From contig JBNKBE010000022.1 in the NCBI GenBank assembly GCA_050287085.1, positions 1 to 58,638 of the forward strand: a DNA stretch of 58,638 nucleotides, given 5' to 3'. A program made the position numbers and the translations under genes. This document shows positions 7,873-24,497 of this stretch, in pieces (positions within the stretch are counted from its first letter, which is position 1; every line of letters begins with the position of its first letter). The notes beneath the pieces were generated by a model. It saw only the letters and a list, made by a program, of their open reading frames with translations. It ran no database searches and had not been told where the DNA came from. The stretch is from Polyangiaceae bacterium. GTDB lineage: Bacteria > Myxococcota_A > Polyangia > Polyangiales > Polyangiaceae.

Positions 7873-7997
7873 GCCGATCGGCTACGCTGGCGTCAGCGCC
7901 GCGTCAACGCCCTTTCTCGGGCAACTGCTCATCCGGGTCCAACACCCCTAGCAGAGCCTGGCCTCCGAAGAGGCCCCCGCCGCGGGGAGTCTGCGAC

Positions 7998-9593
7998 TCA
8001 GAACCAAATGTACGCGCGGCCGCGAATGCTGAACATATTGGTCTGCTCGTCCAGCCGCGTCCCGCTTGGGCCGTACTTGATGTCCGCATCCGCCAGCCCA
8101 AAGACCAACTTGAAGGTGGCGCGCTCAAGGATGTCATGCTGAATCGCCGCAAAGTATTGCGTATGGGCTTGCTGCTCGCATCCCTGACGATAGATCGGAC
8201 TTCCTGCGGCATCCGTTTCAGGGTTACCCGTTACCGGGTTGCGAACCGCGATCTGCCCGCAGTCTTGACTGATCCGATCGGTCTGGTTGAAACCGCCTCC
8301 GAGGACAAGCCCTTTGAGAGCTGGCGACAGCCAATCCAAGCGTGCGTTGAGGAAGCCACCATAGGTCGTGCGCTCCACGCTGCCCGTGAGACTGAAGACC
8401 CCCAAATCATCGTAGACGTCGGCGTAGCCCTGTGCGTACGAAGCGCCGAACTCCAGATACGGATAAAACACAAACTGCGCACCGCCACCAAAGCCCTCCC
8501 GCACTTCGTCCCGCTGCAACGTAGAAGTGGCTGCGTCCGTTTCCTGTCGCGACACAAAACCGACCCGCTCCCAGGCGGCCTTGAGCTTCAACCACTCAAA
8601 GTCCAAGATCGCAGCGGGACGTACTCCCCAGGGAATGAAACAGGACTGTCTAGGCTGAACGGCCCCCGTGGGATTGCCGTTCGCGTCGACTGGCCTCCGA
8701 AACTCCGACGTTGAAGGGCACCGTGTCGTGCGTTCGACATCAATGCCCACCAACGCTTCAAGCTCGAAGCGTAGGTAGTCGGTCGGATAGGCGTGAAGCG
8801 CAATCTGTCCGAGCGGACCCTGCCGATAGAAGGCGTGGTTGACCTCGTACATGTCCACGACCACGTTGCGGTCGTGATCGGCTGGCGTGGCGCCTTGATC
8901 TTCGAGCGTGTCGCGCTCGAGACCCATACCCTTGTGGTAGACCTCCCAAGCTTCGAAACGCCCAAATTGAATATCGAATAGGTCCCAGTAGCCAAACTTG
9001 ACCCAAGCGTCGTCAACATCAACCACCACCTGGTTGTTGGCGGCATCGGATAGCGCAAGGAACTCACCCTGAGCTTTGGCGAACCACTTGCCGTGCGTGT
9101 ACGTCGGCGTGGCGCGCAACATGAAGCGCCCCTGCTGGGTGAACTCCGACTCATTGCCGTCCGATTGCGTCGGCAAGTCGGTTTCCGTAGCGCGATACCC
9201 GGTGTCGATCCAGGTGTCGCCGCTCAGCATGAGCCCCGTGCGCCGATAGTCGCTCTGAAAGCCGTGGGCGTTGAAGAGCATCGACCCCTGCGGAATACCG
9301 GTCCGATGACCTCCGGTCCTTCCGAAGGTGTAGACCCGACCAAACGCAATCTCAGCGCTGCCGTAGGTGGATTTGCCCACGTTGGGATCAAAGTCTGTAA
9401 TGGGTCGCTTGCCACTGTCTGCCTCGGCAGCGGTTGTGCTGAGCGCTTCTTCTTCACCACTCTCGGCGGCTGCCGAGACCTCCGTGGCATTGGCGTCGAG
9501 GGAAGCTTCGCCGTCGGCAGAAGACTGCGCTACGGCTTCGCCGAGCGCAAACGTATACAGGGTCGCGATTGAAAGAGCGACAGATCGCTTCAT
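7998..9593 (-). CDS. Putative outer-membrane beta-barrel (porin-like) protein
   Basis: Sec signal MKRSVALSIATLYTFALGEAVAQ; VDDAWVKFG and IQFGRFEAW strand motifs; C-terminal aromatic beta-signal RAYIWF. Confidence 0.7.
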   Translation of the reverse strand: MKRSVALSIATLYTFALGEAVAQSSADGEASLDANATEVSAAAESGEEEALSTTAAEADSGKRPITDFDPNVGKSTYGSAEIAFGRVYTFGRTGGHRTGIPQGSMLFNAHGFQSDYRRTGLMLSGDTWIDTGYRATETDLPTQSDGNESEFTQQGRFMLRATPTYTHGKWFAKAQGEFLALSDAANNQVVVDVDDAWVKFGYWDLFDIQFGRFEAWEVYHKGMGLERDTLEDQGATPADHDRNVVVDMYEVNHAFYRQGPLGQIALHAYPTDYLRFELEALVGIDVERTTRCPSTSEFRRPVDANGNPTGAVQPRQSCFIPWGVRPAAILDFEWLKLKAAWERVGFVSRQETDAATSTLQRDEVREGFGGGAQFVFYPYLEFGASYAQGYADVYDDLGVFSLTGSVERTTYGGFLNARLDWLSPALKGLVLGGGFNQTDRISQDCGQIAVRNPVTGNPETDAAGSPIYRQGCEQQAHTQYFAAIQHDILERATFKLVFGLADADIKYGPSGTRLDEQTNMFSIRGRAYIWF

Positions 9594-9614
9594 CAAGGGT
9601 ACTCCGGGCTGAGT

Positions 9615-9652
9615 GAACGCGCGCTACGCCAGGAGCGTAGCCACGCGCGTTC
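9615..9652. terminator. Stem-loop between the GH3 and porin genes (terminator or mRNA-stabilising hairpin)
   Basis: GAACGCGCG/CGCGCGTTC outer stem and CTACGC/GCGTAG inner stem; no strong U-tract. Confidence 0.5.
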
Positions 9653-9670
9653 CTACCTCATTCTGTCTGA

Positions 9671-12211
9671 TTACTGTACTGAAACTGTGCCGATCATGTT
9701 GGCCGGGATGTCGCGCGAGTTTGGACCCACCATGATGGTGTGCTCTCCTGTTTCGACAACCCAATCGTCCACCGTCTCGTCAAAGTAGGCCCAATCCTTG
9801 ACGGGAAGCGGAATCGTGACGCGCTTGGTCGCACCCGCCTCCAGATCGACTCGAACCGCGACCTTGTACTCCTTCTTCGGGCGCTGCAAAGGACTGTCTG
9901 GGCCGCTTGGAAAGCCAACGTAGACCTGAATGACTTCAGTACCCGCCACCGATCCGGTATTGGAGATGTCAACCGCAGCCCGCACCACACCGTCTTTCGC
10001 GGTCGTGCCGCAGGGCAGGGTCAGCGAGTTGTAGCTGAACGTCGTGTAGCTCAAGCCGTAACCAAAGGGGAAGAGCGGCGCTACACCCCGCGCCTCAAAG
10101 TCGCGGTAGCCGTGGAAGTACTGGAACGTGAAGCGCGGCACGCCGCTACCAACGTCTCCCGCGTCCGCGATCGCAACCGGCCAGGTCTGCGGCAGACGAC
10201 CACTGAAGTTGGTCGTGCCATACAGCAGATCCGCCACGCCGTAGGCGCCCACCATGCCCGGGTACCAAGCCATTACGATACCCTTAACCTGATCCTTCCA
10301 CCCCGCCATCGTGATCGGAGCGCCACCGTAGAGAACAACCAGAGTGGGCTTTCCCTGTGCCGCAACCTGAGCGATGAAGTCAGCTTGGCCGTCCGGGAGC
10401 TCAAGCGTCTCGCGATCGCCGCCGTTTTGCCACTCCTCGCCTTCGTCAAAGCTGGTGAGCGCAGCGAAGACAATCGCTAGATCGGCACCGGCAGCCGCCG
10501 CCGGATCCGTCCCCTCTACAAGATTGATCCCCGCGGGAGCCCGCTCGACCAAGCCTTGGACGGGAGAGATGCGCTCACTCGGGAAGACCTGGCTGCTGCC
10601 CTTGTCGCCCATGCGGGCGGCGTTCGCCCAAGTGCCAGCGCCGTTCTGGTATTCCCAGTCGTCCCAGAAGCTCACCTCACCCTTGGGACAGTTGGTCTGG
10701 GCGCCGTTAACGGGCTTGGGGCAAGGCCCGGGCATCGGCGGGGCCAACAACGCCACCGTGGTGTACTTCTCCGGCGTGATCGGCAGCAGCGCGTCGTCGT
10801 TCTTCAACAGCACCGTGCCTTCTTCGGCGGCACGCTCGGCCAGAGCAACGTGATCTGGATGCTCCAGGTAGGTGTTGTTGTTGAAGTAAGTACGGACGCC
10901 TTTGACCTGTTCGGTGTCATCGCAGCACTGCTGCCAGCTCTCCGTGAAGCCAAAGCGGTACTTCTGAGTCAGAATGTGGCGGACCGCCCCGTCGAGCGTT
11001 GCGGCGTCGACCTGGCTTTCAATGCCGTCGAAATAGACGCGCTCCGGCATCTCCACCTCTAGGCCCGCATTGACGCTGGGCGCCCCGCTGACAGCGGCGC
11101 CCCAGTCCGACAGCACAAACCCCTTGAAACCCAACTTGGTGCGCAGGAGGTCTTTCAACAGCGCCGGGTTCTCGGTCACGTGAGTGCCGTTGACCGCGTT
11201 GTACGACGCCATGATACAAGCCGGATCAGCCCCTTTGATGATCATTTCAAAGGGACGCGCATAGTTCTCCCGCAAAGTACGGTCGTTCATGTCCGCGCTC
11301 ACGTTGACACGACCGGTTTCCACCTCGTTGCCGACGAAGTGCTTCGGACAGGCCTGGGTGAACTGCTGACAGCCCACCACGAAGGCCGTCCCGAACTTCC
11401 CGGTCAGCCACGGGTCTTCGCCGTAGGACTCCTGAGCGCGGCCAGCGGCGGGGTGTTTGGTCAGGTTGACCGTTGGGGCCAAAGTGTTGTTCCACCCAGC
11501 AGCTAGGACCTCTTTGCAGATCGCAGCCCCCACCTCGTACTCGAGTCCGAGGTCAAAGCTCGCCGCACGCGCGACCGAAACCGGAAACGCCGTTGCCTTG
11601 CGGCCCGCGTTGTTCTCCTCTTCCCATTGGCTGATCCCGCGCGGTCCGTCCCGGAACTTGAACGCCGCGACGCCGGCCGTGTCTCTCGTGCTGAACTGAG
11701 CGTTCCGGTCGCCACTGCACCAATAGCCAGGGCATACCTGCTCACCCCCCATCATCTCCGCCTTCTCGGCACCTGTCATGGCACCGAGCTTCGCCGTTAC
11801 CTTGGCTTCGATGGTGTCGTAGGGAAACGTTTCTCCAGGGGACGTCGGATCGGCGTAGTTCTCGGACGCACACATCATCGCTACGTCAACCGTTGGTTCG
11901 ACGGGCATCATGTTGGGCGCGCCTGCGCCACCCCCCATGTTGTCCGGATTCCCCGCGCCGCCAGACGGGCCCGCGCCCCCTTTCCCTACGTCCTCCTGAT
12001 CGCCAACCTGGCCAAAGGGATTACCACCGGACATCCCTCCGGTGGACGTCCCCGCATTGTTAACTTGTCCCCCGGAGGCTGTTCCCGCCATCGAGTTCGG
12101 CGCGCCCCCTACGCCCTGCTGCGGCGGCACATTGCGCTCACACCCGACGAGGGCCAGGAGACCCAAGGTGTAGAGCGTTTTGGGGATGCTGAAGTAACGA
12201 TTCTTTTTCAT
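9671..12211 (-). CDS. GH3 beta-glucosidase/xylosidase, lipoprotein, with Fn3-like C-terminus
   Basis: Start ATG 12211 MKKNRYF with lipobox LALVGC; RDGPRG, GRAQESYGEDP, CPKHFVGN, nucleophile GFVLSDW, PLFPFGYGLSYTTF. Confidence 0.93.
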   Translation of the reverse strand: MKKNRYFSIPKTLYTLGLLALVGCERNVPPQQGVGGAPNSMAGTASGGQVNNAGTSTGGMSGGNPFGQVGDQEDVGKGGAGPSGGAGNPDNMGGGAGAPNMMPVEPTVDVAMMCASENYADPTSPGETFPYDTIEAKVTAKLGAMTGAEKAEMMGGEQVCPGYWCSGDRNAQFSTRDTAGVAAFKFRDGPRGISQWEEENNAGRKATAFPVSVARAASFDLGLEYEVGAAICKEVLAAGWNNTLAPTVNLTKHPAAGRAQESYGEDPWLTGKFGTAFVVGCQQFTQACPKHFVGNEVETGRVNVSADMNDRTLRENYARPFEMIIKGADPACIMASYNAVNGTHVTENPALLKDLLRTKLGFKGFVLSDWGAAVSGAPSVNAGLEVEMPERVYFDGIESQVDAATLDGAVRHILTQKYRFGFTESWQQCCDDTEQVKGVRTYFNNNTYLEHPDHVALAERAAEEGTVLLKNDDALLPITPEKYTTVALLAPPMPGPCPKPVNGAQTNCPKGEVSFWDDWEYQNGAGTWANAARMGDKGSSQVFPSERISPVQGLVERAPAGINLVEGTDPAAAAGADLAIVFAALTSFDEGEEWQNGGDRETLELPDGQADFIAQVAAQGKPTLVVLYGGAPITMAGWKDQVKGIVMAWYPGMVGAYGVADLLYGTTNFSGRLPQTWPVAIADAGDVGSGVPRFTFQYFHGYRDFEARGVAPLFPFGYGLSYTTFSYNSLTLPCGTTAKDGVVRAAVDISNTGSVAGTEVIQVYVGFPSGPDSPLQRPKKEYKVAVRVDLEAGATKRVTIPLPVKDWAYFDETVDDWVVETGEHTIMVGPNSRDIPANMIGTVSVQ

Positions 12212-12641
12212 TCCGATCTCCGCGGGGTCGCACAAGTAGCGGGTCCCCAAAAGGCCGAGTTGCTCGCGGTGCGGGCACTCTCCATCACCGCTACCGGTAC
12301 GCGCTAGCGCACCACCATCAGCGCAAAATTGGGGCAACACCGGGCTGACCGGTTGGACCGGTTCACCCAGCTCCAGACGCCCCTCGCCACCGATTGCCAG
12401 TTCGATGTTCTGGGCGATATGAGTCCGACCAATTTGATCACCGTATCCCCGCCTATGTAGCACACCGGCGTACCTGCTCGCGGAAAGGTCTCGCTCGGCG
12501 AAACAGCCGGAGTCCTGGCGTTCAAAACTTTCAGGCCGGGTGGAACGCCTGGCGCTCACCGGCCCGATTCGCGCGCTTCAAACCGCTGCAGCTCTTTGGG
12601 ATGCGGACCGCAAGCCACTTCTCGCAGCAACAACGCACCAG

Positions 12642-12673
12642 ACCCGCGACCGCCCGTCAGGGCCGTCGCGGGT
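12642..12673 (-). terminator. Hairpin downstream of the DUF1552 gene
   Basis: ACCCGCGAC/GTCGCGGGT stem with inner GCCC/GGGC, about 35 bp past the stop at 12708. Confidence 0.5.
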
Positions 12674-12707
12674 TGTAACCCACAAGGTAGCTTACGCTGC
12701 CAACATA

Positions 12708-14177
12708 TCACCCCAGGCCCGAAAGCGGTCCGGTGCAGAAGTCGGGGTGACCAAAGGTCTGCGTGTCAACGCCAAACATATTGAGGATCGAAACCAACAT
12801 GTTGTTGTGCGGCTGAGACGGGACTTTCAACCACCGGTGCCCTTCCAACTTGCCCCCGGCCTTGCCAGCCATGAGAAAGGGCATGTTGCTCTGATTGTGG
12901 TTTTCGGGCATCTGAATCTCAGAAACGGAAAGCACCAGCGAATTGTCCAGCAGGGTGCCTTCACCTTCGTCGATTGAGTCCAACTTTTGAAGGAGATACG
13001 CGAGCTTCTCCATGTAGAAGCTGTAGATGACTTCTAGGGAGCCAGGCTGAAAACCGCGGTCGTGTTGATACCCGTGATGGTGGTCCGTGAGCGGCTGTCC
13101 ATTCTGGTCCTTCAGGAAACCCAGCATGAATTTCGCTTCCGAGTCTGACCACTGCATGGTGCCGACTCGCGTCAGATCACACGCCATCGACGCCACCAGC
13201 AAGTCGGTCATGATCTCCCCCTTCAGGGGCACCTTCGCCCCGGTGGTGATCGACGCGTTGCCGCCATCAGACGCTCCACGCGAAACTCCATCCGCGATCG
13301 GATCGTCGTAGAATCCGGGGACGGGATCGACCCCCTCCGGAACCACACATCCCGCGTTGACCGTTTGCTTCAGCCCCTCTTCGGTCTGCTGTATCAACGT
13401 CATGTGGGCGTCCAGCTTGGCGCGGTCCTCCGCCCCGAGCTGGGTCATCACCCGCTTGAAGTCCTCCTGGACGCCGTCCAAGATCGAAGTGTTCCACTCG
13501 ACCATCTGAGAGGCGACGTCCGCGTCCCCATTCACGCCGGCGAAAATCCGGTTGAAGGCATTGAGCGGATCGCTCGCAGGAGGTACAGGCGTGGCAGCGC
13601 CGCCTGGCATGGACGGCGCCTGATACGTGATGATGTTGCCTGGATGAGGCTGCCCGCCAGCGGTAATTCCCGTCGACCAACCCGCCGAGAACTCCAAGCT
13701 GGGAAAGCGCGTCCCGGTCGAAATGGAATCAGCGATAACCTGATCGATAGACGGCCCGGCGGAAAACCCCGCGTTGCCGCCGTTGGTATTGTAGTTGCCG
13801 GCCAGCAGCTGCTGTCCGGTCAGCACGCCACCCATTCCGCGACTGTGCGGATGCCCAAAACCCAGCCGAGTGACGGATAGGTCCACTCCATCCACGAACA
13901 CGAGGCGGTCTGAGAAGGGCGACAGGGACGACATCATGGGCTGCAGGGTGAAGTCACGCTCGCTCCCCGTGGGACGCCAGCGATCCAGCAGTGTGCCGCC
14001 GGGATTGTAGAACACGATCAGACGCGTTGGCGTGTCGCTCTGGGCGTGAGTGTGCCCGGGGCGCAGCATCGCAGAGAGAAAGGGCAGACCGATAGCGACC
14101 CCCCCTGCCCCTCGCAGCAGAGTTCGGCGGTGAATGCGATTCTTCGAAGTAATCATCCAATGACTCGTTTCTTTCAC
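12708..14177 (-). CDS. DUF1552 family protein (Tat signal)
   Basis: IHRRTLLRGAGGVAIGLPFLSAM; SIDQVIA; SILDGV; LGAEDRAKLDAH; ACDLTRV; EGTLLDNS. Confidence 0.92.
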   Translation of the reverse strand: MKETSHWMITSKNRIHRRTLLRGAGGVAIGLPFLSAMLRPGHTHAQSDTPTRLIVFYNPGGTLLDRWRPTGSERDFTLQPMMSSLSPFSDRLVFVDGVDLSVTRLGFGHPHSRGMGGVLTGQQLLAGNYNTNGGNAGFSAGPSIDQVIADSISTGTRFPSLEFSAGWSTGITAGGQPHPGNIITYQAPSMPGGAATPVPPASDPLNAFNRIFAGVNGDADVASQMVEWNTSILDGVQEDFKRVMTQLGAEDRAKLDAHMTLIQQTEEGLKQTVNAGCVVPEGVDPVPGFYDDPIADGVSRGASDGGNASITTGAKVPLKGEIMTDLLVASMACDLTRVGTMQWSDSEAKFMLGFLKDQNGQPLTDHHHGYQHDRGFQPGSLEVIYSFYMEKLAYLLQKLDSIDEGEGTLLDNSLVLSVSEIQMPENHNQSNMPFLMAGKAGGKLEGHRWLKVPSQPHNNMLVSILNMFGVDTQTFGHPDFCTGPLSGLG

Positions 14178-16084
14178 TGCCCCGCGGGGACCAACTCTCG
14201 ATACAAGAAGCCGTCGGTTTGGGTGACCGCCAACATCAGGTCTTTGATGTTGCCCCCCGCCTCGACGAAAGCGACTTCAGCGGCACCGCGACTGACCGCG
14301 TCGCCGTCGTCGACAGCGCGCCCGTACGCGTACGTCAGGTAGCGTCCAACATAACAATCGAGGACATCTTCGCTCTGCGCCAATTTCTGGGCGAACTCGA
14401 CAACCCCGTCAAAAGGCCCAGCCACGTCGGTGATAGGAATGTTGCCCGTGGCATCAATGGCCGCGCCATTGTCCGTGTCGCGCCATAAGCCAACGCCGTC
14501 GAATTGCTCGAAAGCAAGCCCCAGCGGATCCATCAGGGCATGGCAGCCAGCGCAGGCGTCGTCCTCTCGATGTCGCTCCAAGCGATCCCGCACTGACTGC
14601 CCCGGCTCAAGCTCGGGGAGCTCTGGTGGAACAAAGGGCGGATTGGGCAAGTTGCCGCAGAGCATCTTGGTGTAGAGCCACTTCCCACGCTCCACAGGAT
14701 TGGTCCGGCTTCCCGGCGTGGTTGCGGCCAAGATGCTCGCCTGCGTGAGAAGACCGGCGCGCGGAGTCGACTCGAGGGACACTTGCACGAAGTCGTCCCC
14801 CGTGACGTCCTCATAGCCGTAGAAGGTGGCAAGGTCCTCGTTGACGAAGGTGTAGGGCGCCGTGAGAATGGTCTTCAGGTCGCCCTCCCCCTCCCAGATC
14901 ACATGATCGAGAAACGTCTCCGTTTCTTGGCGGAAGAGCTTACCCATTCCGGGCAGGTAGGTTGGGTAGTAGCTAGCGTCGCGCTCCAGGTAGTCGAGGC
15001 CGCCAATAGTGAACAACAGTCGATGGAAGTACCGTAAGCTATCCTTTGACTTTCGGGTGTCTTCGAGCATGCGACGAGCCTGTTCGGCAACACCCTCTTT
15101 CGTAGCCAATAGGCCCTGATCCGCTGCGGCCAGCAGTTCGTCGTCGGGGGTGGAGCTCCATAGCAAGTACGATAGGCGTGTAGCTAGCTCGTACCCAGTG
15201 GGCTTGGCTAACCCACACTCGGCATCGACGGGCTCACCCACCTCGAGCCGATACAGAAACTGTGGCGCTTGCAGCGAACGCTCGATCACCGCCCGAACGC
15301 CGCTAGCAAACCCACCACCAAGCGTACTGCCCGTTGCGAATGCAGCCCTGTAAGCGTCGAGCTCGTCGCTGGTTGGGGGTCGCCGAAACACGCGAGTGAG
15401 GTATCCGGGCAGGAAGCTCTGTTCACACTGAGCTTCGCCCTGCGCCATGTCGCAACGGGTCGCCATCTCTAGCGAGCTCTGGTCCGCGGTGAGCTCCAGG
15501 CCGAGGCGCTGAGCCACCTGCCGATAGCCGTCGATCAACAGGCGCGACACGCCCAGGGCGTCAGCGTCGTTACCAAAGCCGCTGCCGGCCTCCTCACCGG
15601 GGAACTCGTCAGCCGGGTTGGAGGTTACTCCGAAAAGGTCTCGAACCGAGTTGTTGTACTCGAAACGCGTGATGCGTCGCAGTGGCGAGCGCGGGGCCGG
15701 TGCACATCCGGGCTGAACCCCTCCTCCTCCCCCGGCTCCTCCGGCGGTGGCGCCCGCAGAGCCCTCGACGATAGGCCCTCCCGCGCCTGAACCCGCAATT
15801 GCATCGGAACCGCCGCCACCTGGGACGGCACCCGTGCCCCCGGCCATCCCGGGTGCCATCGGGTCGTCCGCAACGACCTGCCCATCGCAACCAATGGCCG
15901 CAAGCCCCAGAGCGAGGGCGAACCCCCATCCGATACCACGGCCAGGACCTTCCGCCAGAGCTGACAACCCTCGGTGCTGACCGAAGACGCGGTGCTCACC
16001 GAAGGCGCGGTGCTCGTCCCCCGCACCGCGCTTTCGCCCAATGCCGCGCTTCCCCCGCGGGCAAGCTCGTGAATGCGTTCGCAT
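14174..16084 (-). CDS. DUF1587/1595/1592/1588/1585 multidomain lipoprotein with a CxxCH motif
   Basis: LRRITRFEYNNSVRDL, FLYRLE, YELATRLSYLLWSSTPDDELL, RAGLLTQAS, TNPVERG, CAGCHALMDPLG; stop overlaps the DUF1552 start (ATGA). Confidence 0.92.
   Translation of the reverse strand: MRTHSRACPRGKRGIGRKRGAGDEHRAFGEHRVFGQHRGLSALAEGPGRGIGWGFALALGLAAIGCDGQVVADDPMAPGMAGGTGAVPGGGGSDAIAGSGAGGPIVEGSAGATAGGAGGGGGVQPGCAPAPRSPLRRITRFEYNNSVRDLFGVTSNPADEFPGEEAGSGFGNDADALGVSRLLIDGYRQVAQRLGLELTADQSSLEMATRCDMAQGEAQCEQSFLPGYLTRVFRRPPTSDELDAYRAAFATGSTLGGGFASGVRAVIERSLQAPQFLYRLEVGEPVDAECGLAKPTGYELATRLSYLLWSSTPDDELLAAADQGLLATKEGVAEQARRMLEDTRKSKDSLRYFHRLLFTIGGLDYLERDASYYPTYLPGMGKLFRQETETFLDHVIWEGEGDLKTILTAPYTFVNEDLATFYGYEDVTGDDFVQVSLESTPRAGLLTQASILAATTPGSRTNPVERGKWLYTKMLCGNLPNPPFVPPELPELEPGQSVRDRLERHREDDACAGCHALMDPLGLAFEQFDGVGLWRDTDNGAAIDATGNIPITDVAGPFDGVVEFAQKLAQSEDVLDCYVGRYLTYAYGRAVDDGDAVSRGAAEVAFVEAGGNIKDLMLAVTQTDGFLYRELVPAGQ
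15972..16015. repeat. 18-bp imperfect tandem repeat (about 2.5 copies) in the DUF1592 N-terminal extension
   Basis: CGGTGCTGACCGAAGACG / CGGTGCTCACCGAAGGCG / CGGTGCTC, encoding EHRAFG-EHRVFG-QHR. Confidence 0.7.
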
Positions 16085-16093
16085 GTTTGCAAT

Positions 16094-16120
16094 AGTGGCC
16101 TGGATACCCACGCAGGTTAC
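16094..16120 (-). promoter_or_regulatory. Putative ECF promoter GTAACC-N16-CCACT for the DUF1592/DUF1552 operon
   Basis: Minus strand GTAACC tgcgtgggtatccagg CCACT, 9 nt before ATG 16084; same motif at 20841 and 24469. Confidence 0.7.
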
Positions 16121-16164
16121 GGACGGATCGCGTGGGCGCGAAAATGCACTGCCGACCGCTCCAA

Positions 16165-18015
16165 TCAGGGCGCGCAGTCGAGCCGGGCTCCAGCCCAAAC
16201 GGCATGATCCAGGGCTGTCGTGTTTCCCCCTATCCCGACGAATAGCCGCAGCTCCGTCTTATCTCGTAAATCGACGTCGACGGTTTGCGCAGGACTCATT
16301 CCAGTCACGACGCCACTTTCGAACAGTAGTTCACCGTCAGCCCAAACCTCGAACTGTACGGAGCCTTCGGTCGCTTGATCGTCGTCGATGCCAATGTCGG
16401 CCGTGAAGCGAGAACAGGCCCGCCCCAGGCGATAACGTATCAGGGACGGCCCGTGCACCCCCAGGCCCTTCTCGTAGGTCGTATCGCGCAAACGAATCTC
16501 TGCGCCGTCGAGCGGCTCGTCCTCGCCGTTAGTGCTGTCGATCTCGACCGGACCAAAGCCGTTCGTCACGTACGTCCAAGGTAGGTTGCTCAGGTACACC
16601 TGCCCGCGAGGAAGCGCCGGCTCGGTACCGACCACCTTGAGGGCCAGCGCATCGTGGGGAGGAACGGTCACTGTCAAATGGTCGGACTGTGACGCAAGCG
16701 TTTGCCCTTGCCATAGATCGTGAACGGCAGGCTCGTCCCCCTCAACCAACCAGATATCCTTCCAGGATAGCGAGATCTCAGCGGCAGCATCGCCACGATT
16801 CCACATTACAACGGCGCGCGCCCCACACTCCGCCAGAGGCTTGGCCAGCACGTCAACACTCCCCTCGCTCATGACCAGCGCCGCCTGAAGACCCAGTGGG
16901 TCCTGGTTGAGCGCAATGACGTCGGTGTTGGTCAGAATCGATCGCGTCTCCTCGCTCATGGTGATGAGATCGTTGCCCGCAATAAGGGGCGCCGAAAGAA
17001 TGGACCACACCGAGAATTGAACGCGCTTCTCCCCCGCTGTGAAGTCCGCGTTGCCAATCTCCAACATATCGGGGTCGTTGAACGCCCCGGGACGCGCATA
17101 GGCTGCCAGCGGCACGGCGGCATCGATCGACTTCACCACAGCGTCCCACGTGGGCTCGGCGTCCCATACCCGCCACAGCTGAACAAGGTTGTGCATCCAC
17201 TCTTGGAAGCCGCCAGTTGCCAGGCTGACCACTACGTCTCGACCGCTGGCCTTCAACGCGTCGACCAAGTCTTCGATCGCCCCTTGTGAAAACCGATTCG
17301 CTGAGCACCGAACATACTTGAGGTAGTCTACGCCCCAACGCGCGTAGTTCGCCGCGTCTATGGACTCGTAGCCCTCCCCGCCGGGCGACGGCCTGCAATC
17401 CTGGATGTGAGAGTAGAAGCCGAAACGCAGACCGCGATCGTGAATGCGATCCACGAGCGAGGTGATGCTACTTGACAGCCGCTCGGGATCGAAAAGACGC
17501 ACGCCTTCCGCGTCGCGCCCGATCTGCCAACAGTCATCCAGGTTAACGTAGCTATATCCCGCACTCTGCATCCCACTGGCTATCAACGCGTCGACGGTCG
17601 CCATCAACTTGGCCTCGTCGAGCTCAGCGCGACACCGAAACGCATTATAGCCATTCCAGCCCATGGGCGGTCGGGCGGCGATCAGCCCCTGGGGAATCGC
17701 CGGGCTGCAGTCCTCAGGGAAGCCCGGCTCCGGTGGCTTGGTTCCCGCTTCGACCGGCTCCGGCCCAGCTTCCCGGGGCGGGGGCACCGCCATTCCCCCG
17801 TCCACGACTTTCGGAGTGCTGGCATCTCGACTCCCGGGCGTGGGCTCGGCACCGGCACCGGCACCGGCCTCGGCACCGGCGCCCGATGCACTTTCCATTG
17901 GAGGCGCCAGCTCGATGTCTTCGCGCCCGCACCCCACCAGCGAACCCACACCCGCGCCAAGTGCGGTGACCAGCCCCAGGGCTGAGCGGATGGCATGTCT
18001 AGAATAGCTCAACAC
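16165..18015 (-). CDS. GH27 alpha-galactosidase-like lipoprotein with C-terminal NPCBM; catalytic nucleophile substituted
   Basis: PPMGWN, VNLDDCW, FNDPDMLEIG, APLIAGND, IALNQDPLG; NPCBM YEKGLGVH..FTADIGIDD..DHAVWAGARL; YLKYV instead of YLKYD; start uncertain (GTG 18015). Confidence 0.88.
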   Translation of the reverse strand: MLSYSRHAIRSALGLVTALGAGVGSLVGCGREDIELAPPMESASGAGAEAGAGAGAEPTPGSRDASTPKVVDGGMAVPPPREAGPEPVEAGTKPPEPGFPEDCSPAIPQGLIAARPPMGWNGYNAFRCRAELDEAKLMATVDALIASGMQSAGYSYVNLDDCWQIGRDAEGVRLFDPERLSSSITSLVDRIHDRGLRFGFYSHIQDCRPSPGGEGYESIDAANYARWGVDYLKYVRCSANRFSQGAIEDLVDALKASGRDVVVSLATGGFQEWMHNLVQLWRVWDAEPTWDAVVKSIDAAVPLAAYARPGAFNDPDMLEIGNADFTAGEKRVQFSVWSILSAPLIAGNDLITMSEETRSILTNTDVIALNQDPLGLQAALVMSEGSVDVLAKPLAECGARAVVMWNRGDAAAEISLSWKDIWLVEGDEPAVHDLWQGQTLASQSDHLTVTVPPHDALALKVVGTEPALPRGQVYLSNLPWTYVTNGFGPVEIDSTNGEDEPLDGAEIRLRDTTYEKGLGVHGPSLIRYRLGRACSRFTADIGIDDDQATEGSVQFEVWADGELLFESGVVTGMSPAQTVDVDLRDKTELRLFVGIGGNTTALDHAVWAGARLDCAP

Positions 18016-18979
18016 CGAGATAGCCCGTAATGTTCGCGGTGATGGGACCTGGCGACAGGACCGGCATACCGTCAATTAGATAGCGCCGATACGTCGGATA
18101 GTAGTCGGCATCCAGCGCAACGCCGAGGTACAGCCGATCTCGGAGCCGAGCATTGGCGGAGGTCTCGAAGCCCACCGAACCATTGATTCGATCCACCGTG
18201 GATCGCAGCGAGCTTGCTTCAAACTCCCCGTGCAGACGGGCCCAATGAGCCTCTCCTCGCAGCCCCACAACCGCAAAGAACGCAGGGGCATCGAGCACCC
18301 GATAACGCACGGCAGCTCCCAGAACCGCTTCGGTATAGCGGCCAGCGTACCCGGTGCGCTCCACCCGAAACCCAGGTCCGGTGGAGACGTCCAAGCGAAG
18401 TCCGAGACCGGGTGCAGACGACAACCACAACACCGACGCAAGCTCGATGGACAACTCTGATCGACGCTCGCCAGTCCAATGGCCACCGCCACCGATCTCC
18501 AACGCCAAGCTCCGCCGCTCCTGCTGCGGGCTTGTAATGCTCCCATATCGCTCTCGGTCTGGAGATAGTGCGCTCGACCGCAATACGGTCTTCACGCTCA
18601 GGGCGACGGCTGCGGCGCTGGCTCCCGAGAAGGGCGGCGACTCCGTCAGCGGCCGAGTAGTGAGGGCTTCGGCGCCGGCGTCGAAGACCCATAGCAGCGA
18701 ATCGTCTCCCAGCGCGGTCACCCAAACCAAAGCCTCGACGTGGAGTCGGCGCGACAGCTCGGCCGCCGCCTGAACCACGTTTTGAGACGCTGCAGCGGGC
18801 CCCGCGGCCGCGCTGCGTGTTGTTTGAATACCCCACGGTGATAGGGCCAGCGAAACCGCCCGATAGAGCTCAGGGTCCGGCTGCAGCACGGCTACGCGAC
18901 GCGGCGAGGCCCCCGCTGCGCCAACGACGCAGAACAAGACGCCAACAACGGCGAGCGCGGCGATACTCCTCCTGGGCAT
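17999..18979 (-). CDS. Putative outer-membrane protein (N-terminal domain plus beta-barrel) of the ECF cassette
   Basis: Signal peptide MPRRSIAALAVVGVLFCVVGAAGA; amphipathic strands in the C-terminal half; ends YLGVELF. Confidence 0.65.
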   Translation of the reverse strand: MPRRSIAALAVVGVLFCVVGAAGASPRRVAVLQPDPELYRAVSLALSPWGIQTTRSAAAGPAAASQNVVQAAAELSRRLHVEALVWVTALGDDSLLWVFDAGAEALTTRPLTESPPFSGASAAAVALSVKTVLRSSALSPDRERYGSITSPQQERRSLALEIGGGGHWTGERRSELSIELASVLWLSSAPGLGLRLDVSTGPGFRVERTGYAGRYTEAVLGAAVRYRVLDAPAFFAVVGLRGEAHWARLHGEFEASSLRSTVDRINGSVGFETSANARLRDRLYLGVALDADYYPTYRRYLIDGMPVLSPGPITANITGYLGVELF

Positions 18980-18990
18980 CCACCCCAAGA

Positions 18991-20199
18991 CTACCTGAGT
19001 CTTCGCAATACCGCCCGTGCGTCCGCAGCGTTGCTGCCCTGAGGAAACCGCTGCAGATATCTTTCCAACAGTCGTCGAGCCAAGGTCGCATTTCCGCGGG
19101 ATGCCTCCAGGCGCCCTCGAGCGTAGAGCGCATTCTGCGCCCAAGAGTCCGACCCCGCCTCAAGCTTGCCGTAGAGACGCGAAGCTTGCCCAGGATCACT
19201 TCGTTCCAGCGAGGTGGCCCGCTCGAACAAGGTCTGCGATGAAATCGCCGGCTCACGCACCCGGACAGCCTCTCCGGCCCGCTCACGGGCGTGCGCAACT
19301 GGACTTGGCTCGGTCGTCTGCTCAGCGGCCGAGCGCTTCGCCCTACGCGGCGGTACGCTGCGGGCACGCGCCGCCCCCAACCCCTCAGAAGCTTGCCCCT
19401 TTGCTGGAGCCTGTGGCGCTTCGTCGGACTCACCGCGCGCGTCCGTCCCGGCAGCGGCGCTCTTGGACGCGCTCCCTTCACCATCAGCTGTGCGCATCCC
19501 TCCGACGACGGCTCCGGACGCCGACGATGGGGTGGACGGGCTTTCCGTTGTTGTGCCGTCCTTCGCTACCGCCTCCCCGGAGCCAGCCTTGGGGGCGTCC
19601 GTTGCGCCTTCGGTGTTGTCTCTTGGCACCCATACTTCGCCGGCCGCAACACGAGACGAGTGCCCCCCCGAGCTAACCTCGACAACCCCCTCGTACACTT
19701 GCACCCGAGCGCCATCGCCCACCCTCGACACATCGAATCGCGTACCCACGACCCGCACCCGCTCGCTACCCGCTTGTACGATCAGCGGTGCCCCACGAGG
19801 TCGAGGAGCAACGCTACAGGTTATGGTTCCTCGGTCGAGAACAATGAGCATACCCTGCGGGGTTTCTGCGCCAACCACCACCGCAGACTCGGGCCCAACG
19901 TCCACGGTCACCCCGGGTAGCGCCAAGTGTGACGCGCTGACCCCCGTGATGATGTGGGAAGGCTGATCGAGCGCCGCCTGCTCCGGTACCAGCTGACGGT
20001 TAAGGGCAAACGCCAACACAACGCAGGCGGCCACTGCCACAGCCGCAAACCACGGCCGCCACGACACCGCTTTGGAGCGAGCGGGGCCGCGGTAGGGGGG
20101 TGCCGCCTCCAGGGCTAGCCGCGCAAAAGTTGCACGCTCGATGCGCGCCCAGCGTTGCTCGCTCAAAGGCTCGACGTCTACGGGCAGCGGCCGTCTCAT
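18991..20199 (-). CDS. FecR-domain anti-sigma factor with C-terminal TPR-like helices
   Basis: Single TM WFAAVAVAACVVLAFAL; FecR motif VRVVGTRFDV..VQVYEGVVEV; C-terminal ALYARGRL..LERYLQRFPQG; coupled to the sigma gene by ATGA overlap. Confidence 0.88.
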   Translation of the reverse strand: MRRPLPVDVEPLSEQRWARIERATFARLALEAAPPYRGPARSKAVSWRPWFAAVAVAACVVLAFALNRQLVPEQAALDQPSHIITGVSASHLALPGVTVDVGPESAVVVGAETPQGMLIVLDRGTITCSVAPRPRGAPLIVQAGSERVRVVGTRFDVSRVGDGARVQVYEGVVEVSSGGHSSRVAAGEVWVPRDNTEGATDAPKAGSGEAVAKDGTTTESPSTPSSASGAVVGGMRTADGEGSASKSAAAGTDARGESDEAPQAPAKGQASEGLGAARARSVPPRRAKRSAAEQTTEPSPVAHARERAGEAVRVREPAISSQTLFERATSLERSDPGQASRLYGKLEAGSDSWAQNALYARGRLEASRGNATLARRLLERYLQRFPQGSNAADARAVLRRLR

Positions 20200-20828
20200 C
20201 TCGGGGCCTCCTCGGAAGCTTGCTCAGACCCCATCAAGAACTCCGACAGCAGCGGATCCCGCTGGGCCCGTTCTTCCAATGCTCGACGCGCCCGCCAGGT
20301 CCTGATCTTAGCCATTCCGAGGGTCGAGTCCATGATCTCAGCGACTTCCCGAAGGCTACGTCCCTCCAGGGCGAATAGGGTAAAAGCCATACGTTGGCGG
20401 GGCTCCAATCGCTCCAATTCAAGATAGAGCCTGCGGACAGCCTCCCGACTTCTGGCGTGTTCTTCGGGGCTCGGAGCCTCGGACGCCGCGTCCTGCACGG
20501 GTTCCAGGCTCGGAAGCTTGGTCTTGCGCCGAAAGTGGGCGTAGGCGACGCGCACGGCGCAGCGGTGGATCCAGGTGCGGAGCGACGACTCGGCGCGGAA
20601 GCTCGGAAGGGAGCGAAATACCTCGAGAAAGGTGTCCTGCAGCAGGTCGTCCATGTGCGCATTGGAACCGATGAGACGAAAGAGAAGACGATGGACATGC
20701 ACACGCTCACGCTCAAAAATCTGGCGCTGAGCTCCCGGATCCCCGGATTTGCATCGCTCGACCAGAATAGCCTCGTCGGGCTGCACGAGTGAGATACGGG
20801 CACTCGATGGAACCCGCGGATTGACCAT
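20196..20828 (-). CDS. ECF-type sigma-70 factor (start probably ATG 20828, downstream of the promoter motif; ORF extends to 20858)
   Basis: DDLLQDTFLEVFRSLPSFRAESSLRTWIHR; region 4 LEGRSLREVAEIM..KIRTWRARRAL. Confidence 0.92.
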   Translation of the reverse strand: MVNPRVPSSARISLVQPDEAILVERCKSGDPGAQRQIFERERVHVHRLLFRLIGSNAHMDDLLQDTFLEVFRSLPSFRAESSLRTWIHRCAVRVAYAHFRRKTKLPSLEPVQDAASEAPSPEEHARSREAVRRLYLELERLEPRQRMAFTLFALEGRSLREVAEIMDSTLGMAKIRTWRARRALEERAQRDPLLSEFLMGSEQASEEAPR

Positions 20829-20840
20829 TTCTCTCGGTTT

Positions 20841-20869
20841 AGTGGGACCCGCCGTCATGGAGGTTACAC
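20841..20869 (-). promoter_or_regulatory. Putative autoregulatory ECF promoter GTGTAACC-N16-CCACT
   Basis: Minus strand GTGTAACC tccatgacggcgggtc CCACT, 12 nt before ATG 20828. Confidence 0.72.
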
Positions 20870-20949
20870 CCTCGGCACAACAAGAGGCGGTGCTGTTCCA
20901 GCGAAAGCCATAACCACATGCGATCGTTTATGTTTTCGGAAGACCCAGG

Positions 20950-22164
20950 TCACTCATAGGCGAAATAGGTCGCCGACAGCAGCCACAGCCCCCCGTCGGC
21001 GATGCGGTTAACCGCGAGCGCCAACTCGTGCCCTCCCGACTCCGACAGGATCGGATCCTCAAAGACAAAAGGCGGAGTGACCGAGCCCGGACACCAATTG
21101 GCGCGAGGCGCGCGCACGCTTTCCATGGCACCACACGGATTCTCTGCGCAGTACTGGTCGATCGACAGGAAGTCGGAGGAATAACTGGCCGGACTGCACA
21201 GAGTGGCGCAGTCGTCACGCCACGGGTTCACGACCCCCAGCTGGCTCGCATCGACGGCGAGAGTATGCTGCCGGCGACAAAACTCCTCCGCGGGTCCGAT
21301 GCAGCCGCTCTCGATAGCCCCGCCGCCGTGACCGGTGGCCCGATACTCGATTCGCCCCGAGCGGGTCCCGCGCGGGACCCGGAACGGCACGGGCTTGGGC
21401 TCGGATTCCTTCTCAAAACCAAAAAAGAGCGGCACCACAGCCAAGACCTTACGAGGTGGAGGCCCGGCTTGAAGCTCAAAGTGGGCGCTGACGATCCATT
21501 CGCCTTCCGCGCCACTCACAACGCCCTCGCCGTCGCCATAGGTCTGGATATCAACGGTGAGCTCATGAGAGCCGAGCCGACCGTTGACGACATCTGTGAC
21601 GTCCACGTCGAGCTGCAGAGGTCCGCCGAAAGGCGTAATGGCGCGCACGAGCTCGAGACCGGGTGACACGCCGGCATCTGGGTCGCTCGGATCGTCCAGC
21701 GACAAGAGCAGCGTCCGGTCAAACGCGTCGCACAAACGCGGCCAGTTGTGCCCTTCGGGTATGGAGTCCCGCGTCCAGCGATCGAAGGGAAAACACGGCG
21801 ATTCGAGCTCGACGATGAGCCGAGCTCGAGCCACAGGCTCCGAACCGAAGTCGACCTCCGTCGTCGCACGCTGAAAAAACTCCGCCTCCGGGTTGCTGGA
21901 AATGCGGACAGCGTCAAAACCGGAAACCTTCCGCCCTGGCGGCGCCGCATCCACCCGTGATGGCGCACGGGCGTCAGACGGCGTCGCGGCGTCTGACAAC
22001 GTCGCAGCATCTGCCCGAACCGCAGTGTCTGACGCGCGCGAACGCGGCTGCTCTGACGAGCCGCCAAACGCCTGCTCTGACCTGCAACTCGCAAGCGAGA
22101 TCAGCAGCGCCGCCGAGAAGAGTCCGCGGACTGCACGCCCAATTGAAACGGTGTGTGAAGCCAA
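20950..22164 (-). CDS. Peptide-N-glycosidase F-related lipoprotein
   Basis: Lipobox LISLASC; CDAFDRT, LELVRAITPFG, ATGHGG, AEEFC, NPWRDDC, RANWCPG. Confidence 0.82.
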   Translation of the reverse strand: MASHTVSIGRAVRGLFSAALLISLASCRSEQAFGGSSEQPRSRASDTAVRADAATLSDAATPSDARAPSRVDAAPPGRKVSGFDAVRISSNPEAEFFQRATTEVDFGSEPVARARLIVELESPCFPFDRWTRDSIPEGHNWPRLCDAFDRTLLLSLDDPSDPDAGVSPGLELVRAITPFGGPLQLDVDVTDVVNGRLGSHELTVDIQTYGDGEGVVSGAEGEWIVSAHFELQAGPPPRKVLAVVPLFFGFEKESEPKPVPFRVPRGTRSGRIEYRATGHGGGAIESGCIGPAEEFCRRQHTLAVDASQLGVVNPWRDDCATLCSPASYSSDFLSIDQYCAENPCGAMESVRAPRANWCPGSVTPPFVFEDPILSESGGHELALAVNRIADGGLWLLSATYFAYE

Positions 22165-22224
22165 GGCATGCTTCTACTACGACCCGGCGCTGAAGACCAG
22201 ACGCCGCCAACGCTCCGAGTGTTC

Positions 22225-22317
22225 GCGGCCCGAGTTCGGGCGCTGACCGTCCGTCAGGGACTCTTGAGCGGCCCGAGTTCGGGCGCTGACAGAAACTCCC
22301 GGTCCGTCAGGGACTCT
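22225..22317. repeat. Imperfect direct duplication of the 3' end of the cytochrome c peroxidase gene
   Basis: GCGGCCCGAGTTCGGGCGCTGAC at 22225 and 22268; GTCCGTCAGGGACTCT at 22249 and 22302. Confidence 0.85.
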
Positions 22318-23414
22318 AGAAACGCCACGATATCCGCTCGTTCTTCTGCCGTCAGCACAAGGGGGTGAATCTGGACGTCGGTGCTTGGATGACCCGACCC
22401 CCCGTCAGCGTAGTGATCTACCACGTCCTCCAGCGTCGCCAGGGATCCGTCGTGCATATAAGGCGCCGTGACCGCCACGTTGCGCAAGCTCGGCACGCGG
22501 AACTTGCCCAAGTCGCCGCTGCGGCCGGTCAGCTCTTGTCGCCCAATGTCACCGCCTTCTTCAAAGACGCCGTTGTTGAAGTAGCCGTCATTGGTCAGCG
22601 TGCCTTCCGAATGACAATGGAAACACTCGGCTCTTTCGCCGAAGAAGAGGCGCAAGCCTCGGGTAGCGGAGGCTCCCAGGGCCTCGGAATCTCCCGCCAA
22701 ATAGCGGTCATAGGGGCTGCTGGTGCTGACCAGCGCTCGAACGAAACTGGCCAGCGCGCGCGCCAGGTGCTCCTCGTCTGGGCGAACCCCGAAGGCAGCC
22801 TCAAACGCTTGCACGTACTGCGGATCGTCCGCCAAACGCGTGACTGCGCGCTCGACGTCCAGATCCATCTCCACCGGATTGCTGATCGGTTGCAATACCT
22901 GCTCTTCGAGCGTCGCGGCGCGACCGTCCCAGAACAGGCCGGCGCGCACCCAGGCAAGATTCGCTAGATGAGGCGCGTTGCGTTCTCCCGTCTGACCGCG
23001 AACGCCTTCGCTCACGCGCGCTGGATCCGAAAAGCCGTAGCGCTGCTGATGACAATTGGCACAAGACACCGTGCGGTCCCGCGAAAGCACGGGGTCGTAG
23101 AAAAGACGCCGACCGAGGGACGCCGCCGCTTCGGTGAGGGGATTGTCAGCCGGAGCGGTGTCCGCAAGCGAAAACGCAAACCCGGCGGGTTGTGCAACCC
23201 GTCCCAGAATCGGCGGAGCAAGGCCGCTATCCGACTTCGCTGAGCACCCGACGCTGGCGTCACCCCGAGCTCCGCCGTCACACTCGACGACGCGCCCGGG
23301 CGCCCCTTCGCACGCGGTCAGCAGCCCAAGAGCCGCGGGCAACCCCCACACGACTTGCAGCCCCAGCACGACGTCGAGCCCCACAGCGCTTGCCCCCTGA
23401 AAGCGCGTTCTCAT
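22254..23414 (-). CDS. Di-heme cytochrome c peroxidase, MbnH/MauG-like
   Basis: LGRRLFYDPVLS, CANCH, RNAPHL, FWDGRA, CFHCH, FRVPSLRNVAVTAPYMHDGS; ATG 23414 overlaps the upstream TGA. Confidence 0.92.
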   Translation of the reverse strand: MRTRFQGASAVGLDVVLGLQVVWGLPAALGLLTACEGAPGRVVECDGGARGDASVGCSAKSDSGLAPPILGRVAQPAGFAFSLADTAPADNPLTEAAASLGRRLFYDPVLSRDRTVSCANCHQQRYGFSDPARVSEGVRGQTGERNAPHLANLAWVRAGLFWDGRAATLEEQVLQPISNPVEMDLDVERAVTRLADDPQYVQAFEAAFGVRPDEEHLARALASFVRALVSTSSPYDRYLAGDSEALGASATRGLRLFFGERAECFHCHSEGTLTNDGYFNNGVFEEGGDIGRQELTGRSGDLGKFRVPSLRNVAVTAPYMHDGSLATLEDVVDHYADGGSGHPSTDVQIHPLVLTAEERADIVAFLESLTDREFLSAPELGPLKSP

Positions 23415-24457
23415 GGGAGCCACCGAAACAAATCGCCCCCCTCGGCGGCGCGGCGCAGTCGCTCCCCAGCCTCCGTTTCGGGTCCAACCTGGGTCAGTGG
23501 ATCGAGAAGCTTGAAGTCGGAGAGGTCGGTTTCGGTCATAGCTGCGTCGAGCAAGCCATCCACTGGGAGCTCGAGTTCGATGGCATCCCCCGCGGACCCG
23601 GAAGGTGCCCGAACGAAGATCCAAGGCGCGCCCCCCTTTTCCCCCACCGCCGCCCCCATGTGGATCAGGGCGGGAACCGCGGGGGCCGCGTCTGAACTCA
23701 CCTGTCCTTCGAAACGCAGGAATAGAAATCCAAGCGAATGGGGCCACTTCAGCTGGGACGCTTCGTCTAGCGGCGGTCCGGCTGGGCCCAGCAGCGCATT
23801 GCATGCCGTGGATAGGCCAAAAAGAAAGGCGAGCCCGTCATAGTCTCCGGGCGGCGCAGCAAGCGCGAAGGTGAGCGACTCCGGCGCTTCCGCATTGACG
23901 AGCTGCACGCCGTAGGGTGCGGGCTCCCCGGCGCCGTCCAGCAGCGTAGCCGCAACCCGCTCTTCACCCCGAAGCACCTCGAATTGAGATAGGTAGAAGC
24001 GCAGATTCGTCGGCATCACGGTGCCGGCCTCCGCTAGCTCGTTCGGCTCGCCAAAGGTCAAGGCCTGCATTCCGAAGCGCAGATCCACCGTCACCTGAGT
24101 ACGAGACGTTGACTCCTCCGAAAGAGTAGGCGCCGCTGGGCATGCGGACGGTACGCCGTCGGGCTTGACCTCGGGCGCGTCCCCGTCCACCCCGTCATCG
24201 CCCTTCGTCGGAGCGCTGTCGGCGCCCGCCGAACCCCCGTTTTCCGGCCCGCCCGCGCCTCCGCCCGGCTCCTGGCTCCCGCCGCCCCCGGCTGCAGGTT
24301 CCGACGAAACACCCGCCGCGTTGTCGGCCCCCATGTCCGGAGAGCGGGAAGACGGAGACTCCCCCCCACCCGAACACCCCGCAAGCCCAGCGACCCCAAG
24401 ACAACCAAACGAAGCCCTCACCCACAGCCATCGCCTCATCGATACCGCCATCTCCAT
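23411..24457 (-). CDS. MbnP-like lipoprotein
   Basis: Lipobox LAGC; NLRFYLSQFEV, PPGDYDGLAFLFGL, LKWPHSLGFLFLRFEG, LIHMG; coupled to an MbnH-like gene. Confidence 0.75.
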   Translation of the reverse strand: MEMAVSMRRWLWVRASFGCLGVAGLAGCSGGGESPSSRSPDMGADNAAGVSSEPAAGGGGSQEPGGGAGGPENGGSAGADSAPTKGDDGVDGDAPEVKPDGVPSACPAAPTLSEESTSRTQVTVDLRFGMQALTFGEPNELAEAGTVMPTNLRFYLSQFEVLRGEERVAATLLDGAGEPAPYGVQLVNAEAPESLTFALAAPPGDYDGLAFLFGLSTACNALLGPAGPPLDEASQLKWPHSLGFLFLRFEGQVSSDAAPAVPALIHMGAAVGEKGGAPWIFVRAPSGSAGDAIELELPVDGLLDAAMTETDLSDFKLLDPLTQVGPETEAGERLRRAAEGGDLFRWLP

Positions 24458-24468
24458 TCCATGACGTC

Positions 24469-24497
24469 AGTGGTCACTCGCCTCGGGACGGTTACAC
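24469..24497 (-). promoter_or_regulatory. Putative ECF promoter GTGTAACC-N16-CCACT for the MbnP/MbnH/PNGase operon
   Basis: Minus strand GTGTAACC gtcccgaggcgagtga CCACT, 11 nt before ATG 24457. Confidence 0.72.

Follow-up and report, generated by a model that had tools for sequence, protein, structure and literature searches.

Which genes does an extracytoplasmic function (ECF) sigma factor of a Polyangiaceae bacterium switch on, through which promoter, and in response to what signal? These questions are raised by a 58,638-nt stretch of DNA (NCBI GenBank assembly GCA_050287085.1, contig JBNKBE010000022.1, positions 1 to 58,638, forward strand), referred to below as the window, in which the same bipartite motif precedes three operons. 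A sequence-only reading of the window had taken the motif for an ECF promoter that joins the three operons into one regulon and co-induces a haem/Tat DUF pair with a copper/peroxidase module. The explanation preferred here, with a probability of roughly 60%, is that GTAAC-N18-CACT serves as the -35/-10 promoter of the sigma, that it would give leaderless mRNAs for the sigma's own cassette and a few other targets, and that the signal is probably a surface glycan. The locus is best read as an autoregulated surface signalling system free of a TonB receptor.

Occurrence of the motif

Three exact copies of GTAACC-N16-CCACT are present in the window:

16094-16120, minus strand: predicted promoter site 1, just past the stop codon of the GH27-like gene, with the DUF1592 ATG 9 nt beyond it
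20841-20867, minus strand: predicted promoter site 2, of the form GTAAC-N18-CACT and autoregulatory, with the sigma ATG 12 nt beyond it
24469-24495, minus strand: predicted promoter site 3, present in this genome alone, between a divergent DUF1304 gene and the MbnP-like gene, whose ATG is 11 nt away

These are the three copies of the sequence-only reading, which had included two upstream bases too many in placing ends at 20869 and 24497. All three ATGs are in frame, at the 9-12 nt that it reported, and the gene identities that it gave hold by Pfam (DUF1592-DUF1552; sigma and FecR; MbnP, CCP_MauG and N-glycanase_C). In 100 dinucleotide shuffles of the window the mean count was 0.01, and none of the 100 reached three. 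The whole genome (6.2 Mb; G000) holds four exact copies against 0.77 expected from half-site counts, the fourth being C6:26402. Among the sites of relatives, neither the leading C of CCACT nor the final C of GTAACC is fixed, and the motif is better written GTAAC-N18-CACT(A); the consensus of the collected sites is (T)GTAACYT-N16-CACTA. When GTAAC-Nx-CACT followed by an ATG opening at least 100 codons was counted in this genome, five sites were obtained at x = 18 and 0-1 at each of 12 other spacers. The two sites beyond the window's three were C6:26402 and C15:112544. The former was rejected as a target, and is probably a chance match, because it overlaps the stop codon of a gene that has a TonB-like gene behind it, and 5/5 relatives lack it at this junction. 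A sigma-70 consensus scan gave three sites against 2.2 expected, none of them at the motifs.

Probable promoter of the sigma gene

Site 2 precedes the sigma gene itself:

20196-20828, minus strand: ECF sigma, 210 aa, Pfam Sigma70_r2 and r4_2

Its homologues align from Met1. An orthologue at 64-75% identity was found in 6 of 17 same-genus genomes, in all six with the motif 8-11 nt ahead of the start. In a tree built from 47 distinct sigma sequences, each over 140 aa (duplicates and fragments left out), the window sigma falls within a 25-row clade with support 98/94. Two of the rows have no upstream DNA, and the motif precedes all 23 others (22/22 relatives and the window's own), which as motif-headed sigmas are 54-75% identical; at 20 of the 23 sites the sequence is GTAAC-N18-CAC[TC], at two the spacer is 17 nt long, and TACA occurs at one. 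In the sister clade, G[TC][AC]AC-N18-[CT]AC[TC] precedes 10 of 16 sigma rows, and in the outgroup 1 of 6; the site is absent before three sigma homologues of complete genomes of 12-14 Mb and before one other. The named close homologues are labelled Polyangiaceae or related myxobacterial bins, and all carriers found are metagenome-assembled genomes.

An AAC-type -35 element and a fixed spacer, placed before the sigma's own gene and kept in its orthologues, are the marks of an autoregulated ECF promoter, and from these alignments GTAAC-N18-CACT is very probably the promoter read by the sigma at 20196-20828. The sequence-only reading had proposed an ECF-type promoter likely read by this sigma and had named absence upstream of orthologues as what would speak against it; the motif before 23/23 clade sigmas bears the proposal out. 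Its worry that the motif had been defined post hoc is answered by the independent sites in relatives. That post hoc definition, together with the C6 copy, which does look like chance, would be the case for chance or for local duplication without function, which we consider barely credible: the conservation data already contradict it, as the copies share their ends but have unrelated spacer sequences, and the motif is kept before sigmas as diverged as those above.

It is also quite improbable that some other ECF paralogue reads the sites, or that they serve a separate transcription factor as operators. Candidates are numerous, with 27 sigma-like open reading frames (ORFs) in this genome and up to 64 matches in relatives, and sigma region 4 residues show no clear covariation with the GTAAC or GCAAC form. 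Against this, the motif tracks this sigma lineage across genera and precedes its gene, the motif is found before none of the other 26 sigma-like ORFs, and the next closest paralogue is only about 30% identical; the non-palindromic layout of 5 + 4 bp at -35/-12 suits a sigma and not a dimeric regulator.

Geometry of the probable promoter

Geometry was examined over 41 sites whose downstream ORF matches a protein of the window or the C15 protein described below; the set includes one site inside a gene and two for which the script chose an earlier GTG despite an ATG at 8 nt. At 28 of the sites, 8-9 nt separate CACT from the start codon, which at 31 sites follows directly on a C, against 720/1802 in the background, and a Shine-Dalgarno-like word occurs at one. 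With transcription from the ATG, a gap of 8 nt makes GTAAC span -35 to -31 and places the CACT adenine at -11, so that starts at 8-9 nt imply leaderless mRNAs. Over the sites, then, a -10 element 6-9 nt before the start without a Shine-Dalgarno sequence is the pattern found, the three window sites standing at 9, 11 and 12 nt. Leaderless genes are plausible in this organism given a peak of TA[CT]NNT 6-9 nt before first ATGs in the genome (about threefold enriched, 63 counts over four offsets, 2350 ORFs), with 1-9 counts at each other offset and no peak at internal ATGs. The layout equals that of the HrpL promoter GGAAC-N16-17-CCACNNA, for which 5' ends lie mostly 0-7 bp beyond (PMC4149516). Transcripts from GTAAC-N18-CACT are, by this geometry, probably leaderless. 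Divergent back-to-back promoter copies were seen in several relatives (L392:6903/6990, L395:10200/10418, L403:1975/2011).

Probable targets of the promoter

The operon behind site 1 consists of the following:

14174-16084, minus strand: DUF1592-family predicted lipoprotein with one CxxCH (PSD3/5/4, PSCyt3, PSD2)
12708-14177, minus strand: DUF1552 (HXXSHH) protein with a twin-arginine-like RRTLL, ATG probably at 14156
12639-12675, minus strand: GC-rich hairpin after DUF1552, -29.6 kcal/mol, no T run following

The first gene contains DUF1592/1588/1587/1595/1585. Among 30 DUF1592 loci examined, the motif precedes 6/6 at 57% identity or more (this genome included) and 0/24 below, which upholds the co-regulation of DUF1592-DUF1552 that had been proposed. 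In L153 the pair has turned divergent and the motif is retained, and the deepest clade member has the complete order sigma-FecR-barrel-GH27-site-DUF1592-DUF1552. The GTAAC form stands before 1 of the 28 DUF1592 paralogues of this genome. The hairpin is likely the end of the DUF1552 transcript; it is not among the terminator-scan matches. The genome's 28 DUF1592 and 26 DUF1552 paralogues often lie near glycoside hydrolase (GH) genes in the loci read, and for such pairs the function is not known and carbohydrate links are hinted (PMC5615132).

A conserved target unlinked to the sigma is headed by C15:112544 (L079:8545-10187, plus strand). It encodes a 535-aa predicted lipoprotein with two related cysteine-containing domains, which gave no match in Pfam or NCBIfam and none usable in the ESM Atlas. 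Homologues occur in 48 of 301 family genomes. The site precedes 4 of 7 top-tier homologues and 0 of 23 lower-tier ones, and it is unlinked to the sigma in G000, G011 and G104. Among further genes headed by the motif in relatives are one that is GH141-like and one that is 3-keto-disaccharide-hydrolase-like. In G011, a motif-headed second FecR-TPR gene lies with the GH27-like gene and no sigma, apart from the main cassette (L101:9807-12952; G011:C73).

Proposed sensing cassette and its possible signal

Three genes follow that of the sigma. The first encodes a predicted FecR-TPR anti-sigma, the second a TolB_N-like/8-strand barrel protein and the third a GH27-CBM51 lipoprotein:

18991-20199, minus strand: predicted anti-sigma, start overlapping the sigma stop
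17999-18979, minus strand: predicted outer-membrane protein, 326 aa, N-terminal helix, alpha/beta domain and OmpA/NspA-type barrel
16165-18075, minus strand: predicted GH27-NPCBM/CBM51 lipoprotein, Cys at 17931, true start probably later than 18075

In the structure model, the anti-sigma has a cytoplasmic helix (14-32), a transmembrane segment (49-69), a FecR beta domain (81-190), a disordered linker of about 120 residues and TPR-like helices (321-401); FecR was found in 78/78 homologues and TPR_14 weakly in 59/78. The barrel protein has no Pfam family. Its model (pLDDT 90) matched OmpA/NspA (E 2e-8) and TolB (E 5e-6) in Foldseek, the TolB match being tentatively assigned to the N-domain, and in the ESM Atlas it falls in unnamed Myxococcota clusters. 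Neither a TonB-dependent receptor nor a Ser/Thr kinase family was found among the 39 window ORFs scanned, the gene at +2 encoding the OmpA-type barrel.

In the GH27-like domain, Val (at 17313) replaces Asp130 of the rice alpha-galactosidase 1uas, where Asp130 is the nucleophile and Asp185 the acid/base (PMC2670981). The nucleophile Asp is missing in all 16 GH27-like copies examined, and the segment of the acid/base is variable, with D near the place in some copies and G, T or N in others. CBM51 is retained and matches solved carbohydrate-binding modules. The protein is likely catalytically inactive, to judge by its residues. Directly after the lipidated Cys (17931, minus strand), a REDIEL segment is conserved and the linker that follows is not; the segment is a candidate docking strand for the barrel protein.

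The arrangement suggests how the system may work. At rest, the FecR-TPR protein would hold the sigma at the inner membrane, and its TPR helices, on their long linker, would extend as far as the small barrel protein's periplasmic domain. The sugar-binding co-sensor would be the GH27-CBM51 lipoprotein with its impaired catalysis, and release of the sigma would give positive feedback and induction of DUF1592-DUF1552. Taken by itself, a glycan signal is put at somewhat short of even odds. The fullest version is tentative and, as a whole, doubtful: that a galactose-bearing glycan, once bound by the dead GH27-CBM51 lipoprotein, is signalled through the small TolB_N/OmpA-barrel protein to the FecR-TPR anti-sigma without a TonB receptor, and that the sigma then switches on leaderless genes including one DUF1592-DUF1552 pair, as a new kind of signalling in Polyangiaceae.

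With the same promoter and reader, the signal might instead be envelope or contact stress, the GH27-like lipoprotein being structural cargo or an output. The triad of sigma, FecR and barrel protein evidently works without GH27, since sister clades keep it with a similar promoter and no adjoining GH27 gene; moreover, the N-domain of the barrel protein resembles TolB, and the targets are nearly all envelope lipoproteins. In the core clade, however, the GH27-CBM51 gene is a constant member of the cassette and has kept an intact binding module, and several targets and neighbours are carbohydrate-related. Envelope stress is on balance unlikely.

Operon behind site 3

The third operon comprises the following:

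23411-24457, minus strand: MbnP-like predicted lipoprotein, W-P-H where WxW is expected
22254-23414, minus strand: MbnH/MauG-like di-haem protein with two CxxCH, ATG overlapping the MbnP-like stop
20950-22164, minus strand: PNGase F-like predicted lipoprotein, Pfam N-glycanase_C

Site 3 lies in an intergenic gap and matches the consensus in full, at a chance of about 5e-6 per gene start. The 21 MbnP homologues, among them the two closest, which come from sigma-bearing genomes, have no equivalent ahead of them; the G011 homologue has GTAACC without a correctly spaced CACT, and the G010 gene closely follows another gene. Nor does an MbnPH pair lie beside any other clade sigma examined. The low chance, taken with the absence before 21 homologues, leads us to read site 3 as a recent recruitment, and the MbnP-MbnH-PNGase operon was likely recruited in this genome, outside the ancestral regulon. 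Of the three operons that the sequence-only reading joined into one regulon, the sigma cassette and DUF1592-DUF1552 are supported as conserved members, and MbnP-MbnH-PNGase is not.

The copper label given to the operon is likewise unsupported. Copper binding by MbnP needs the WxW motif (PMC11951088), here replaced by W-P-H. The MbnP-like protein passes Pfam MbnP (61.8 vs 27) and falls short of TIGR04052 (24 bits against a cut-off of 140), and the MbnH-like protein falls short of TIGR04039 (292 bits against 363). Joint induction of haem/Tat DUF proteins and a copper/peroxidase module by one conserved regulon, in a metal or redox response, would be favoured by the quality of site 3, by the sigma-bearing genomes of the two closest homologues and by the MbnPH pairs found beside FecIRA-like systems (PMC3621798); with the motif and cut-offs missed, and neither sites nor MbnPH pairs in relatives, it is highly improbable. 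The sequence-only reading had missed four features: the unlinked conserved target C15:112544, the leaderless geometry, the nucleophile-less GH27-CBM51 lipoprotein and the barrel protein. These suggest glycans, not copper or peroxide.

The PNGase F-like match of 20950-22164 fits the glycan theme: the protein matches PDB 3ks7, 7zgn and PNGF-II with E-values of 7e-10 to 1e-5. Its DF-D-R, EL-R and EEFC motifs look like catalytic ones. A search of PDB sequences with the MbnP-like protein gave no usable match. The Polyangiaceae subfamily to which it belongs (L369-L385) has conserved C-N, W-P-H and H-M-G motifs and not WxW, W-P-H being present in most members; by these motifs the subfamily may bind metal differently. 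An 8-codon ORF at 24436-24462 (minus strand) begins 6 nt past the CCACT of site 3, and its stop overlaps the Met7 ATG of the MbnP-like gene, a start that gives a more typical signal peptide; from this layout, coupling to a leaderless upstream ORF is possible.

Findings that weigh against the preferred explanation

Several findings tell against an autoregulated, glycan-sensing system of this kind. The scan of the genome and its relatives that the sequence-only reading had proposed gave an excess in this genome, as above, with relatives near background: the exact motif occurs 0-3 times per genome, below the reversed-pattern control in most, and a relaxed pattern is also below its own control in most. 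Genome-wide counts set against these controls do not separate sigma-bearing from sigma-less genomes, and the ATG-anchored pattern gave 12 matches in the six same-genus genomes with the sigma and 6 matches in the 11 without. With counts hardly above background, the case is positional and the regulon tiny (1-5 sites per genome). Four sister-clade sigmas of the same triad type lack the site, as do three top-tier C15 homologues, two of them in sigma-bearing genomes, and several of the compared loci are close kin and hence not independent. In four relatives, a site next to the cassette heads a second, distant ECF gene (L061:14897-15718, L149:7142-7790, L156:14375-14946, L158:8291-8967), so that the output may be a wider cascade. 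The only basis for the glycan is the neighbouring genes, and inactivity of the GH27-like protein is likely rather than proven, since GH97a lacks the nucleophile and yet works by inversion (PMC2670981).

Neighbouring genes

The GH3-porin-GH31 genes (12559-4972) were rejected as part of operon 1: the hairpin and about 500 bp lie between DUF1552 and the likely GH3 start, and the genes do not follow DUF1552 in the relatives examined. The region 4972-12559 (minus strand) encodes a GH3 lipoprotein, a barrel-like protein of 532 aa that is unclassified and has WF at its end, and a GH31+PA14 protein. It resembles a unit for sugar use that lacks SusC/SusD and probably has a promoter of its own. Another ECF sigma, unrelated to the first, is encoded at 1989-2645 (minus strand); it has no motif ahead of it and adjoins genes for a ThuA-like lipoprotein and a cysteine-rich repeat protein (region 2919-4880, plus strand). 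ThuA-like genes were also seen near the cassette in L149 and L156.

Significance

If true, the fullest version of the glycan reading would give the long-unexplained 'planctomycete-specific cytochrome' pairs their first defined inducer and tie them to glycan use. One of 28 DUF1592 paralogues would be singled out as a regulated target, a handle on a family without known function (PMC5615132). The preferred explanation would also provide a promoter, and hence a reporter, for a myxobacterial ECF lineage resembling ECF267, whose promoter and regulator the 2021 classification did not settle, and the proposed receptor-free route for a signal across the outer membrane can be tested. Prediction of an ECF regulon from an autoregulatory motif is routine, however; the regulon is small and its carriers are metagenome-assembled.

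Comparison with known systems

A literature search, largely without subscription papers, found nothing on this promoter, cassette or regulon. The cassette resembles ECF267 in its host family, in a FecR-like anti-sigma fused to TPR at +1 and in the lack of a TonB-dependent receptor (Casas-Pastor et al. 2021, PMC7826278). For that group, known from Sorangium and Chondromyces, the paper gives 'target promoter motifs not conserved' and one to three nearby kinases (PMC7826278), and 'CACT' was not found in the available part of the supplement. Here, in contrast, the promoter is strongly conserved in the clade, no kinase is present among the 39 ORFs, and the barrel protein and GH27-like lipoprotein are fixed partners. 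With the kinase and unconserved-promoter features not shared, the cassette is not filed under ECF267 in this comparison by description. The placement of ECF267 in a clade with ECF02 and ECF32 (HrpL) (PMC7826278) fits a promoter that looks like the hrp box. HrpL promoters share the xxAAC -35, the spacing and a CAC-type -10, and ECF32 is not autoregulated (PMC4149516); the present system differs in its T at the second position, in being autoregulated and anti-sigma-coupled, in its likely leaderless transcripts and in its lack of type III secretion genes.

The inactive GH5 that serves as a sensor for an anti-sigma in Clostridium thermocellum (Rsi24C-GH5/RsgI; PMC3526467, PMC10766802) likewise ties a glycoside hydrolase module without catalytic residues to an alternative sigma. 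There the module is fused to the anti-sigma in a one-membrane cell, whereas here it is a separate lipoprotein of a two-membrane cell with a putative sensing role. The third operon is like known MbnP-MbnH pairs in that an MbnP-fold partner is followed by a MauG-like di-haem protein (PMC11951088, PMC3621798), and unlike them in its W-P-H, in its scores under both TIGRFAM cut-offs and in the PNGase F-like gene that comes next. In FecIRA and MbnIRT, one operon brings together an ECF sigma, a FecR-domain protein that crosses the membrane once, and a partner in the outer membrane (PMC3621798), as is the case here. The partner in the present cassette is a 326-aa OmpA-type barrel with an alpha/beta domain instead of a TonB-dependent transducer with an N-terminal signalling domain, and the anti-sigma ends in TPR helices after its linker. 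By analogy, the system is one that would work like an autoregulated ECF system of the FecIR type.

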